A stretch of DNA of 64,000 nt from Escherichia coli (lineage in GTDB: Bacteria; Pseudomonadota; Gammaproteobacteria; Enterobacterales; Enterobacteriaceae), in NCBI RefSeq assembly GCF_036507355.1, contig NZ_AP027877.1; one strand, given 5' to 3'. The notes below the pieces were generated by a model. It ran no database searches. It was not told the origin of the DNA and saw only the letters and a list, made by a program, of their open reading frames with translations. Shown piece by piece: positions 39,692 to 44,378 of this stretch (within the stretch, counting starts at the first letter, position 1; each line of letters starts with the position of its first letter). A program made the position numbers and the translations under genes.

Positions 39692-40108
39692 TTACTCCCC
39701 TTGTAGTGTCGCGATGATGCGACGCGATCCGCCGTGGATGCGATGTTCCCCCAGCCAAATGCCTTGCCAGGTGCCGGTCTGAATACGCCCTTTATGCACC
39801 GGCAATACAAGCGATGTTCCCAGCATTGAGGATTTGATATGAGAAGGCATATCGTCTGCTCCCTCATAGTCATGCTCATAGTTTCCATTATCGGGAACGG
39901 TGCGGAGGAAAAAACGCTCCATGTCGTGGCGTACGGTGGGATCGCAGTTCTCATTAAGTGTCAGAGAGGCGGAGGTATGTTGCAGCAACAGATGCAGTAA
40001 GCCGATGTTAACGCGCGGCATATCAGCCAGCTGATTCAGAATTTCATCCGTTACCAGATGAAACCCACGAGATTTGGCGCTAAGCGTGAGCGTCTTTTGA
40101 TACCACAT
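39692..40108 (-). CDS. yjbQ: UPF0047-family protein YjbQ
   Basis: 138 aa ORF in conserved position. Confidence 0.7.
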
Positions 40109-40218
40109 GTGCTGCTCCTTGATAAAACTCTCTTAATCAGTTTGCAGCAAGACAGCGAAAGGATAAAGGTGTGATTAAAAAAACAGCATTCGGGAGAGTG
40201 TCACGCTCTCCCGCTCTG

Positions 40219-41211
<993 letters not shown>

Positions 41212-41310
41212 TTAATGAACTTAATGATACAGCATTACAAAAACAATCGAAGTTTAAAAAATAAAATTTTTATAAAGATGATCTCTGATTGACCAGAACC
41301 CTACCATACA

Positions 41311-41853
41311 ATGGTGACTAATTTTATTACTCTCGAAGGAGATGATGATATGAATATATCATATGTGAATAGCAACAAAACGACATCTTTACCTGTTGAG
41401 CTAGATGCACTAAATAATAAAGATATCTCTTATGCCAAAGATTTTTCTTATGCCAAAGATTTCTTTTTATATATAGAAATACAGTTAAAAATTGCAAAAG
41501 ATTTTTGTAGACCTGGAGAAGAAGTATCAAGTTCTATTGCAAGTACAGTTTTTCACGCTTTTATTGATTTAGTTAACAAAATCAGGGGAAAGAAAGATTG
41601 TATGTATATTTGTACGCTTTGCTGTTTTGCCGAGGAGGTTAAAGGTGATTATTCTCATTACAGGACCTTTTCATTTGATATCGGTAATCAATATAAGGTT
41701 AAACTTACACAAAGCGGAAAAGATGAGTTCTCTTTAACTTTAGAATTTAACGATACTATAATTGAATCTCAGAAAGTCACAGGCAATAAGGCAAAGCATA
41801 TTCTTAAGGATATAGCAGAATACTATCGTAACAAACCCGGCACTTATTATTAA
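41311..41853 (+). CDS. hypothetical protein in AT-rich islet at the yjbS locus
   Basis: 180 aa ORF, visibly AT-rich, no recognisable domain; contains perfect 18-bp tandem duplication. Confidence 0.45.
   Translation: MVTNFITLEGDDDMNISYVNSNKTTSLPVELDALNNKDISYAKDFSYAKDFFLYIEIQLKIAKDFCRPGEEVSSSIASTVFHAFIDLVNKIRGKKDCMYICTLCCFAEEVKGDYSHYRTFSFDIGNQYKVKLTQSGKDEFSLTLEFNDTIIESQKVTGNKAKHILKDIAEYYRNKPGTYY
41428..41463 (+). repeat. 18-bp tandem duplication inside the yjbS-locus ORF
   Basis: TCTTATGCCAAAGATTTT followed by TCTTATGCCAAAGATTTC, encoding SYAKDF twice. Confidence 0.8.
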
Positions 41854-42074
41854 GTTTAATAATGATTAGAAATGCAGAAATTATTACCCCACACAAAAAA
41901 ACAGGGTAAGGAATTCCAGATAATTAGGATAATCTTAACAATAAAAGAACTAACAACGTTTATTATCTCTCACGTAGAACGATGGTATCAAAAAAATCAT
42001 CTATAAAGAAAGTGTGAAAGCGACGACAGTTTAATTTCACTGCAGGCTGGGTAATTCCAGCCTGCTTTACTGCA

Positions 42075-43268
42075 TTACATCACCGCAGCAAACGCCTTTG
42101 CCACACGTTGCACATTTGCCGTATTTAACCCGGCGACACACATGCGACCGCTGGCGATGAGATAGACACCAAATTCTTCACGTAGTCGGTCAACCTGAGC
42201 GGCACTTAAACCGGTATAACTGAACATGCCGCGCTGATTAAGCAGATAATCGAAATTGCGTTCTGGCATCTCTGTGCTCAATACCTTCACCAGTTCCTGA
42301 CGCATTGCCAGAATGCGAGTACGCATCTCTTCTACTTCCGCCAGCCAGCTGGCTTTCAATGCCTCGTCATTCAGCACCGCAGCCACCACCTGCGCACCAA
42401 AATTCGGCGGGCTGGAGTAGTTGCGGCGAACTGTTGCTTTCAATTGCCCCAGTACGCGGCCTGCAGCTTCGGCATCTTCACACAGAACAGAAAGTCCGCC
42501 AACGCGCTCGCCGTAAAGGGAGAAAATTTTCGAGAACGAATTGCTCACCAGAGCGGGTAATCCAGCGCTGGCAATGGCGCGAATGGCGTAGGCATCCTCT
42601 TCCATACCGGCACCAAATCCTTGATAGGCAATATCAAGGAATGGGATAAGCTCGCGGGCTTTGAGAATTTCAATCACCGCATCCCACTGGTCATTAGTGA
42701 GATCGGCACCCGTTGGGTTGTGGCAACATGGATGCAGCAACACAATACTGCGGGCAGGTAATGTTTTCAGCATCGCCAACAGGTCATTAAAGCGCACGCC
42801 GTTAGTCGCTTCGTCATACCAGGGGTAAGTACTTACTTCGAATCCAGCCCCGGCGAAGATTGCTACGTGGTTTTCCCAGGTAGGATCGCTGACCCAGACG
42901 CCTGATTCCGGGAAGTAGCATTTCAGGAAATCCGCGCCCACTTTCAATGCCCCTGAGCCGCCAAGGGTTTGAATGGTTGCTACGCGCTGTTGTTGCAGTA
43001 CCGGATGGTCGGCACCAAACAGCAGCGGCGCAATGGCATGGCGATAGCTGTTAAGCCCTTCCATCGGTAAATAAAGCGAAGCGCCATGAGGCTGCGCATT
43101 CAGGCGCGCTTCTGCATCAGCCACGGCTTTCAATTGTGGAATAATTCCGTCTTCGTTGTAGTACAGACCGATACTTAAATTCACTTTGTCGCTGCGAGGG
43201 TCTTCTTTAAAACGCTCCATAAGCGTAAGAATCGGGTCGCCAGCGTAGGCGTCAACTTTTTGAAACAC
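42075..43268 (-). CDS. tyrB: aromatic amino acid aminotransferase TyrB
   Basis: 397 aa from (V)[13 protein letters not shown] (GTG start); PLP lysine context [14 protein letters not shown]. Confidence 0.9.
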
Positions 43269-43349
43269 GCGATGGTTCTCCAGGTTTACGGGCAGGTGGT
43301 TAAAACACAATAAACCGGAAGAAGGCGAAGATCGAGTGGATGTTCAAAG

Positions 43350-44378
43350 TCAGTCGGGAAGTTGATGAAGAATTTGCCCCAGTCGCTCTTGCAGCGACCC
43401 CGAAACCGAAAGATAAGGAATGTTCCTGCGCGATAATTCCTGTTCGTACCACGCCTGCTGCCGCGCGCGAAACGCCTCTCCTTGCCGGGTGCCATCCTGC
43501 ACAAAGGGAAATTCCGCGCCGCAAAGCACCACCAGAGAGTATTCCCGCTCCGCCAGCTGGTGAAGTTCTTGCGGGGCATGACCATATTGATCAAGGGTAT
43601 AGAACAAGGTCGTGAGTGGCGATGTGTCACATATAAGATAGCGATTAGCTTCTGCTTGTTGTTCCCGACGTACCTGTTCGCGGGCGATATGCAACAAATC
43701 GTCTGCGGTTAAAACACCATTTTTCTCTTCCCAATAGTCGCGACCAAATTCAGCGACATACGCCGTATCGAGCACGTCCGCCAGTGCTTTTGAAAGTGTG
43801 CTCTTACCGGTTGATTCGCCACCAAGCAGACAGATACGGCGAACGAAACTGCGATAAACGTCGTGCGCCAGCATGTAGCGATAACGGTGAACGTCGGAAC
43901 GAATCAGCGTTCCCGAAGGTGATTTATCGCCAAGTGGACGCTGTAATCGAACGTGTTCAACAGGTTGGGCAAAACGCAGTGCCAACACTTTAGCAAAACC
44001 GTCACCATAATCTTCTGCGGTAAATACAGCGTGTGGGCGGCAACGTAATACCTGCAGGCACAGCGTCGCCACATAATGACGATGGATGTCGGCATCGGCA
44101 TCATTATGCGGTATGGCAGGTAAGTTATAACGCGCGATCAGTTCGGGAGTCAGTACCAGAACCATCGCTCGTGGGAAGCGCACTTGCAGCCACGTCAGGC
44201 GCTTTTCAGGTTCACAGTCAGGCATTTCCGGCACGGAATAACTGATGATGAACAGTTCTTCACATTGTGCCAGCGCGGTATTAATCAACCGTTCATGACC
44301 ACAATGCAAAGGCGCGAATTTGCCAACCACCAGTCCCGTTACGAAAGGCTTCATGATGCCCGCAGCTCCTTGCGCCAC
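43350..44378 (-). CDS. NadR-like bifunctional NMN adenylyltransferase / ribosylnicotinamide kinase lacking the N-terminal HTH domain
   Basis: 342 aa ORF with nucleotidyltransferase motif GKFAPLHCGHERLI and Walker A GGESTGKSTL in the same order as NadR; alternative start at 44354 overlaps upstream stop as ATGA. Confidence 0.7.
   Translation of the reverse strand: MAQGAAGIMKPFVTGLVVGKFAPLHCGHERLINTALAQCEELFIISYSVPEMPDCEPEKRLTWLQVRFPRAMVLVLTPELIARYNLPAIPHNDADADIHRHYVATLCLQVLRCRPHAVFTAEDYGDGFAKVLALRFAQPVEHVRLQRPLGDKSPSGTLIRSDVHRYRYMLAHDVYRSFVRRICLLGGESTGKSTLSKALADVLDTAYVAEFGRDYWEEKNGVLTADDLLHIAREQVRREQQAEANRYLICDTSPLTTLFYTLDQYGHAPQELHQLAEREYSLVVLCGAEFPFVQDGTRQGEAFRARQQAWYEQELSRRNIPYLSVSGSLQERLGQILHQLPD

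Follow-up and report, generated by a model that had tools for sequence, protein, structure and literature searches.

The yjbS gene of Escherichia coli lies between aphA and tyrB, and we examined it in a stretch of 64,000 nucleotides (hereafter the window) from one strain (NCBI RefSeq assembly GCF_036507355.1, contig NZ_AP027877.1), where the site holds a long, AT-rich open reading frame (ORF) containing two tandem copies of an 18-bp unit. Two described classes of repeat locus come closest to it. The in-frame coding variable-number tandem repeats (VNTRs) of bacteria, e.g. those used as loci for multiple-locus VNTR analysis (MLVA) of E. coli, share with the yjbS repeat a head-to-tail arrangement of units that are a multiple of three, copy-number polymorphism between close relatives and a preserved reading frame, whereas the yjbS repeat differs in its low range of copies (1-4). 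The one MLVA locus with which it was compared, CVN002, also has an 18-bp unit, but an identity of the two was rejected, its primers (PMC8143711) being unmatched in the window at up to 3 mismatches. The phase-variable loci of Neisseria, Haemophilus and Campylobacter likewise possess a repeat tract that mutates faster than its surroundings, but their units are of 1-7 bp and a change in copy number shifts the frame or the promoter spacing; the yjbS unit is of 18 bp and expression is not toggled.

A second line of comparison concerns the site itself. In K-12 the tyrB/yjbS region is a listed 'promoter island', which interacts with H-NS and overlaps a predicted foreign region (Panyukov and Ozoline 2013, PMC3661553), and the tyrB/yjbS segment is among the 20 most GC-divergent of that genome (PMC2575891). 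The islet that carries yjbS in the window resembles such islands in its 30% GC and patchy distribution, but no excess of promoter-like sites is seen: a simple sigma-70 consensus scan in the window returned 5 such sites where shuffles led us to expect 5.0. In the uropathogenic E. coli strain CFT073 the KguS/KguR island for alpha-ketoglutarate utilisation (c5032-c5041) sits between tyrB and aphA, i.e. in exactly the same gap (PMC3694859). Its content, genes for a two-component system, oxoglutarate dehydrogenase and succinyl-CoA synthetase, is unrelated to that of the islet, and it is thus an alternative occupant rather than a relative. As for the gene, K-12 yjbS (b4621) encodes an uncharacterised protein of 67 aa and has the same locus, strand, start codon and Shine-Dalgarno sequence as the window ORF. 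It is among the genes scored essential by TraDIS (sequencing of transposon insertion sites) only (PMC5821084), and IS1 was found at the same yjbS position in clones of two macrophage-adapted populations (PMC4999529). No paper on the long form of yjbS or on its repeat was found in the literature.

The reading that we favour, with a probability of roughly 0.78, is that positions 41350-41853 of the window are an intact gene of 167 codons restricted to E. coli and Shigella, that its repeat is an in-frame coding minisatellite, and that the gene is weakly constrained and dispensable. The features on which the following sections draw are collected in Table 1.

Table 1. Features of the aphA-tyrB interval, in window coordinates
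Feature	Position	Strand	Remarks
Full-length yjbS, most likely coding sequence	41350..41853	+	167 aa and stop; start codon is the annotated K-12 yjbS start
In-frame 5' extension MVTNFITLEGDDD	41311..41349	+	ATG without Shine-Dalgarno sequence; probably 5' leader rather than coding
Shine-Dalgarno sequence AAGGAG	41336..41341	+	8 nt 5' of ATG 41350
Two tandem 18-bp units	41428..41445 + 41446..41463	+	Unit 1 TCTTATGCCAAAGATTTT; unit 2 TCTTATGCCAAAGATTTC; residues 27-38 of the 167-aa protein
G lost in K-12	41507	+	GATTTTTGTAGACC -> GATTTTTTAGACC; frame shifts
A7-run site	41717..41728	+	Interrupted in the window allele
Terminator-like hairpin, then T-run	41884..41909	-	Consensus match only; for transcripts from the tyrB side; just 3' of the ORF
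yjbS islet, ~1 kb, 30% GC	41065..42073		blastn break points of the window against E. coli Nissle
aphA (acid phosphatase)	40219..40932	-	Left neighbour, divergent
tyrB (aromatic amino acid transaminase)	42075..43268	-	Right neighbour, convergent

The yjbS frame and its coding signal

An earlier note on this DNA had pointed to a 180-aa ORF in an AT-rich stretch between aphA and tyrB, and both the list of open frames in the window and the base composition bear this out: counted from its first ATG the frame spans 41311-41853 (+ strand), and GC is 0.29-0.32 over 41000-42050 as against 0.47-0.59 in the flanks. The ORF is on the strand opposite to both aphA and tyrB, and these flanks are common to all 21 alleles compared. 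Within the frame ATG 41350, rather than ATG 41311, is the likely start, because it has the Shine-Dalgarno sequence upstream and is shared with K-12 yjbS; the GGAG core of that Shine-Dalgarno sequence shows no variation in the allele alignments. The 13 codons that the upstream ATG would add are open in all alleles examined, and some gene callers do start there, giving rise to 173/174-aa database entries (P0004, P0006; P0088, P0100).

The frame runs for 186 codons from stop to stop, a length that none of 2000 shuffled versions of the AT-rich DNA attained (mean 72, maximum 155), and its GC at codon positions 1, 2 and 3 is 0.37, 0.31 and 0.25. The 15 intact alleles compared hold 78 variants, of which 36 fall at third positions; 30 changes are synonymous, as against the 19.9 expected from a spectrum-matched, stop-free permutation (P=0.006). 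The ratio of non-synonymous to synonymous change (omega) in these alleles is 0.36 by the Nei-Gojobori method (NG86) and 0.55 by a mutation-spectrum-aware count, and purifying selection on yjbS thus appears to be weak (omega about 0.4-0.55). Otherwise intact alleles have indels in multiples of 3 only (±18 bp and, in Res13, a deletion of 3 bp), and intact alleles are present in all deep clades despite 3-8% divergence. On these sequence comparisons we read yjbS as a real gene, weakly constrained and dispensable, the protein of which is presumably made in the cell.

An in-frame minisatellite with one to four copies

The earlier note had described the repeat as a perfect 18-bp tandem duplication. 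It is indeed tandem and in frame, and both units encode SYAKDF, so that this peptide occurs twice; the DNA of the units is identical at 17 of 18 bases and is therefore not perfect. Tandem Repeats Finder reports an array at 41419-41464 with a period of 18, 2.6 copies and a score of 78, one of three arrays scoring at least 50 in the window. When the 1.1-kb AT-rich stretch was dinucleotide-shuffled 500 times, 2 of the shuffles contained a full repeated unit (periods 12-60) with no more than one mismatch.

A comparison of repeat and ORF length across E. coli and Shigella, as that note had proposed, brought out copy numbers of 1, 2, 3 and 4, with intact ORFs of 160/161, 167, 173 and 179 aa respectively, and several length classes. 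These classes were counted in two evenly spaced samples, each of 60 records, from the ~4,350 carriers of the ORF, ranked against the window allele and against the K-12 allele respectively. The two-copy length of 543 bp accounted for 27 of 60 records in both samples, and the K-12-like length of 523 bp for 20 in the first and 22 in the second; the others were of 541-542 bp (4 and 3), 515 bp (O157-like; 4 and 4), 522/525 bp (single copy, in frame; 2 and 2) and 561-562 bp (three copies; 1 and 1), or were partial or interrupted by IS1 (2 and 1). In terms of carriers, ~45% have the two-copy 543-bp allele, ~35% a K-12-like and 7% an O157-like one, the remainder having other frameshifts or IS1. Two copies is the commonest state and, judging from the allele sequences, probably also the ancestral one.

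Both gains and losses of units are seen around this state. The 68-mer of a three-unit array is matched end to end in 42 genomes, exactly in 11 and with up to 2 differences in 31, so that three-copy alleles comprise at least two sequence types; the 86-mer of a four-unit array is matched in one genome, SW4848. The frame is kept both in ST70 (three units, 173 aa) and in SW4848 (four units, 179 aa), the extra units of which are in the ATC (ISYAKD) register, and D6 has three TTC units; from these two registers it follows that expansion occurred at least twice. Single-copy alleles likewise fall into two deletion registers, one in which K-12, OkiPb and P5 read NNKDISYAKDFF and another in which O157, Res13, P7 and Shigella flexneri P0088 read NNKDFSYAKDFF, and both occur even inside the K-12-like clade (K-12/OkiPb versus S. 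flexneri P0088). At least one of these types must therefore stem from a two-copy ancestor, and NNKDFSYAKDFF is most simply explained as the two-copy KDISYAKDFSYAKDFF after its first unit was lost. Over 850 aligned columns, 1-5 SNPs separate some alleles with 1, 2 and 3 copies: one SNP lies between C3 (2 copies) and OkiPb (1 copy), and 3 SNPs lie between K-12 (1 copy) and D6 (3 copies). Thus, the 18-bp tract is an in-frame coding minisatellite or VNTR that is polymorphic through independent events.

We infer that slipped-strand mispairing, or a deletion mediated by the direct repeats, adds or removes one hexapeptide (in the [I/F]-S-Y-A-K-D register) near the N-terminus, in a segment that is modelled with low confidence: AlphaFold gives residues 1-35 a predicted local distance difference test score (pLDDT) below 50, and a helix begins at residue 28. 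Each such step alters the length of the protein by 6 residues and never turns the gene off.

The earlier note had suggested a recent slipped-strand duplication as one reading of the repeat. The tract does behave as a slipped-strand repeat, but the duplication is neither recent nor specific to this strain. That the two units of the window differ at only one base, and that K-12 and O157 have a single unit, would agree with a duplication private to this strain or to a narrow lineage, on an ancestral single-copy background like that of K-12. However, the two-copy allele is the commonest in both samples and is represented in all deep branches of the allele tree, the units within two-copy alleles of other strains have diverged from each other (GCC/ACC/TCC/GAC/GCT variants), and the F-type single-copy alleles (O157, Res13, P7, S. 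flexneri) are most simply a two-copy allele minus a deletion. We hold a private duplication to be very improbable.

The note's further suggestion, a contingency-type repeat, does not survive the comparison if the term is taken in its usual sense: the copy number does vary, but the 18-bp unit is a multiple of three and therefore no copy number shifts the frame, as is evident from intact alleles of every length, and the repeat cannot act as an on/off switch. A phase-variable locus might alternatively be switched by the A7 run further downstream. A run of this length is short for a phase-variation tract and is interrupted in the window allele, many of the lesions seen in other strains are of an irreversible kind (a 10-bp deletion, IS1, the loss of a G that lies in no long run), and all alleles with 1-4 copies are in frame barring another lesion. 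Switching by either tract appears improbable to us.

Intact alleles, disrupted alleles and the K-12 form

K-12 carries, as the earlier note had it, only a short yjbS at this place, with the same start and on the same strand, and the note's suggestion that this strain may have a longer version is confirmed (167 aa versus 67 in K-12). Over the ORF the DNA of the window and of K-12 is 92-93% identical and collinear, the differences being indels. The first ~46 residues of K-12 YjbS are those of the window protein save for the extra repeat unit of the latter, the K-12 gene being without one 18-bp unit where the window allele has two. Two 1-bp deletions distinguish K-12 further, one of the G at 41507 and another of one A of the downstream A-run. 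The 67-aa form results from the loss of the G, and consists of ~46 native and ~21 out-of-frame residues. By this alignment K-12 yjbS is a frameshifted stub, or remnant, of the intact 167-aa gene. In O157:H7 the allele has one unit and a 10-bp deletion, which leaves 119 aa.

Intact alleles are found in many strains. All 11 fetched 543-bp alleles of other strains (including PapM-32-1, AR_0119, LH85-a, STLEFF_29, C3, 120899, FDAARGOS_1289, Ec1117 and APEC O2-211, and P3, which comes from another collection) encode an intact protein of 167 aa, which makes 12 with the window, and intact single-copy alleles of 160/161 aa are present in Res13, OkiPb, P5, P7 and Shigella flexneri P0088. By extrapolation, the gene is intact in about half of the carriers. 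The window allele is among them, its frame not being broken relative to intact relatives as that of a pseudogene would be. Its closest complete genome is that of PapM-32-1, from a Gambian baboon, with 99.3% identity in the ORF DNA (41311-41853) and 98.8% over the aphA-tyrB interval, and with 2 aa differences in the protein; all other complete genomes are at most 96.1% identical over the ORF. The exact 167-aa protein of the window is absent from a collection of 15 billion sequences.

In the remaining carriers at least 6 distinct disrupting lesions occur, including the K-12 G deletion, the O157 10-bp deletion, a 1-bp insertion in D6, and IS1 (in LF3-1, strain 127 and ES6). They lie on terminal branches beside intact alleles; K-12, for instance, differs from the intact OkiPb allele by 1 SNP in 850 columns. 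Inactivation of yjbS has been both recurrent and recent, through single-base deletions (K-12), deletions at or near the A7 run, the 10-bp deletion (O157) and IS1.

The annotation of intact alleles in RefSeq takes several forms: a 223-nt 'frameshifted' pseudogene, an 'incomplete' pseudogene, or an added separate ORF of 83 aa. Since 223 nt is the 204 nt of K-12 yjbS plus 18 (the extra unit) and 1 (the G absent in K-12), the RefSeq pipeline evidently gauges intact alleles against a truncated reference. A single 167-aa coding sequence is annotated in none of the intact alleles fetched from RefSeq records, and GenBank and UniProt hold 161-, 167- and 174-aa entries named 'hypothetical protein'.

The YjbS protein and the search for relatives

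The 167-aa YjbS has a mass of ~19 kDa, a pI of 6.8 and 5 Cys. With neither a signal peptide nor a hydrophobic segment of membrane-spanning length in its sequence, it is predicted to be a soluble protein. The absence of a recognisable domain, which the earlier note had remarked upon, holds in the libraries searched: Pfam, PHROGs and PADLOC gave no match, and NCBIfam gave only BamG (E=0.022, 13.9 bits versus a cutoff of 250), which is not significant. A profile search against the sequences of the Protein Data Bank (PDB) returned only noise, and no solved-structure relative.

Searches for homologues did not lead out of E. coli and Shigella. Among 5.8 billion clustered proteins YjbS homologues are found in these two only, fragments of the same E. 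coli family were all that a profile search obtained from 1.84 billion representatives, and none of the 409 open frames of the window is a paralogue. In species-representative genomes the sole match, a locus labelled 'Flavobacterium paronense', was rejected as a non-E. coli homologue, as it is an E. coli contaminant. The contig in question ('Flavobacterium paronense CECT 8460' tig00000241, NZ_JAUFQN010000013.1) is 9.4 kb long, is 96.6% identical to 38.3-43.3 kb of the window with 26 gap openings, and probably stems from uncorrected long reads. Apparent divergent relatives were likewise set aside, P0029, P0037 and P0057 being alleles with compensating frameshifts, and P0063 and P0053 coming from error-rich assemblies in which the flanking genes are fragmented. 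In two assemblies (GCA_046507455.1 and GCA_019431085.1) the aphA, tyrB and alr calls are fragmented around the locus, which suggests that these hold many indel errors and give rise to spurious 'divergent' YjbS fragments in the protein databases.

Structure prediction of the product, also proposed in the earlier note, was carried out and gave a low-confidence model with no recognisable fold. It has a disordered N-terminus, three helices, a five-strand meander and a C-terminal helix, the meander (residues 95-144) being the best-predicted part (pLDDT 60-73). In a Foldseek search of AFDB50 with this model, 14 of the next 23 matches beyond four to the family itself are uncharacterised proteins of E. 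coli, Shigella or Salmonella with 12-18% identity (e.g. Q8XC25, B7NEY7 and A0A2X2HGS0), and several of them align at 3-4.5 Å over ~100 residues. We treat kinship of these proteins with YjbS as a lead only. YjbS might be a young gene (de novo or from an unsampled source) in the midst of birth and death and restricted to E. coli, or else a diverged member of a larger, unrecognised and fast-evolving enterobacterial family; this is a speculative proposal, to which we give little credence. Should the larger family be real, the hexapeptide VNTR could serve to tune a surface through which a lineage-specific protein interacts.

YjbS might also be an orphan of the immunity or effector type, for example CdiI-like or related to type III effector domains, left behind by a lost toxin or secretion system. 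All scores pointing this way are in the noise range, and the model has a mean pLDDT of 54; there is neither a PADLOC match nor a sequence relative in the PDB, and no significant similarity to CdiI. Moreover, no toxin, Rhs/Cdi or secretion gene adjoins yjbS, its neighbours being aphA and tyrB. Such an origin strikes us as improbable. Our best guess for YjbS is an accessory cytoplasmic protein, specific to its lineage, that is on its way to being lost.

A dispensable gene or a decaying spacer

Several observations weigh against yjbS being a functional gene confined to E. coli and Shigella. Nucleotide diversity is 0.031 in the ORF, no lower than the 0.025 of the upstream non-coding part of the islet. 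When frameshifted alleles are added to the intact ones, synonymous changes number 22 as against 16.8 expected, which is not significant (P=0.08). The ORF is disrupted in about half of the carriers of the islet, and the intact fraction is itself extrapolated from 11 sequenced alleles and from length classes rather than from a full census. For the long form of yjbS, no evidence from transcripts, ribosome profiling or proteomics was found. The libraries and the PDB yielded neither a domain nor a solved-structure relative, and the AlphaFold model, made with six sequences, is of low confidence (mean pLDDT 53.6, predicted template modelling score 0.49). Finally, that other Escherichia species are without the gene is judged from two short peptide patterns and from protein databases.

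Much of this would suit an alternative in which the ORF is no functional gene at all but a decaying, H-NS-bound AT-rich spacer or foreign relic, i.e. a pseudogene that is not yet broken, with a neutral repeat. Apart from the diversity of the ORF, the want of homologues and domains and the poor structure model, this alternative can draw on the near-even distribution of variants over the three codon positions when all alleles are pooled (18, 24, 23), on the disruption of about half of the carriers by at least 6 lesions, and on the absence of the islet from ~20% of genomes. K-12, moreover, grows normally with its truncated yjbS. Against a mere spacer, however, stand a frame of a length unexpected by chance in 30%-GC DNA, the persistence of intact alleles in every deep clade, the excess of synonymous and third-position changes in those alleles, the invariant Shine-Dalgarno core, and the fact that the repeat changes and the Res13 indel keep the frame. 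The earlier note had held that disruption or absence of the ORF in most close relatives, with no evidence of expression, would indicate a non-coding spacer. The data go roughly half of the way: the ORF is disrupted in about half of the carriers and ~20% of genomes are without the islet, and on the other side intact alleles with a modest synonymous excess are found in all clades. On balance, we consider a non-functional relic unlikely and prefer a weakly constrained and dispensable gene. The islet around that gene may be silenced by H-NS under laboratory conditions, going by the literature on K-12.

The islet, its alternative occupant and its neighbourhood

Of 5,426 complete E. coli genomes, 4,350 (~80%) contain the ORF DNA. 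In E. coli Nissle, homology with the window breaks off 132 nt upstream of the start codon of aphA and is taken up again exactly at the stop codon of tyrB, and the islet gives way to 13.7 kb with genes for a histidine kinase, for a sigma-54 regulator, for an oxoglutarate dehydrogenase complex and for a succinyl-CoA synthetase; this segment is the KguS/KguR island of CFT073. Most of the ~1,076 genomes without the ORF probably carry the same island, Nissle being the single genome viewed directly. The deviant base composition of the islet, its patchy occurrence in the species and the finding of no protein relatives outside E. coli and Shigella are what a horizontally acquired islet would show.

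The islet appears to be a target hot spot for IS1, and the laboratory insertions in yjbS (PMC4999529) fit with the natural ones in the islet of LF3-1, strain 127 and ES6. No RNA family was matched by Rfam in 40000-43500 at E values of up to 1, so that a known RNA does not account for the region.

Some further observations were made in and around the islet. A 16-bp segment of A and T only, TTTAAAAAATAAAATT at 41253-41268, is located 5' of the ORF and is present only in the window and PapM-32-1 among 15 aligned alleles. Of ~4,400 islet matches in E. coli genomes, 3 are on records labelled as plasmids, which could be mis-assigned chromosomal contigs. Directly beyond tyrB the window has a gene for a NadR-like AAA-family ATPase (43350-44378, - strand). 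The same gene, followed by pnuC and then alr, is found in Nissle and at one further locus (L022), and in K-12, O157 and PapM-32-1 alr adjoins tyrB without a NadR-like gene between them, apparently a second presence/absence polymorphism next to the yjbS site.

Implications for annotation and for the evolution of the locus

The yjbS locus combines an orphan accessory gene with a coding minisatellite, both of them known kinds, and gives no pointer to a new kind of biological system; the main value of the analysis lies in curation. The reference annotation carries the stub as a 67-aa 'protein YjbS', while the full gene is of 161-179 aa and is intact in roughly half of the carriers. As the RefSeq reference is either this stub or the O157 truncation, intact alleles come to be labelled 'frameshifted' or 'incomplete', or are split in two, so that pan-genome and pseudogene counts come out inverted at this locus. 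As a typing marker, the 18-bp VNTR could be of minor use. For the biology of E. coli, the locus offers a compact example of slippage in an in-frame repeat, of recurrent independent inactivation, including that at an IS1 hot spot, and of either/or replacement by the KguS/KguR fitness island.

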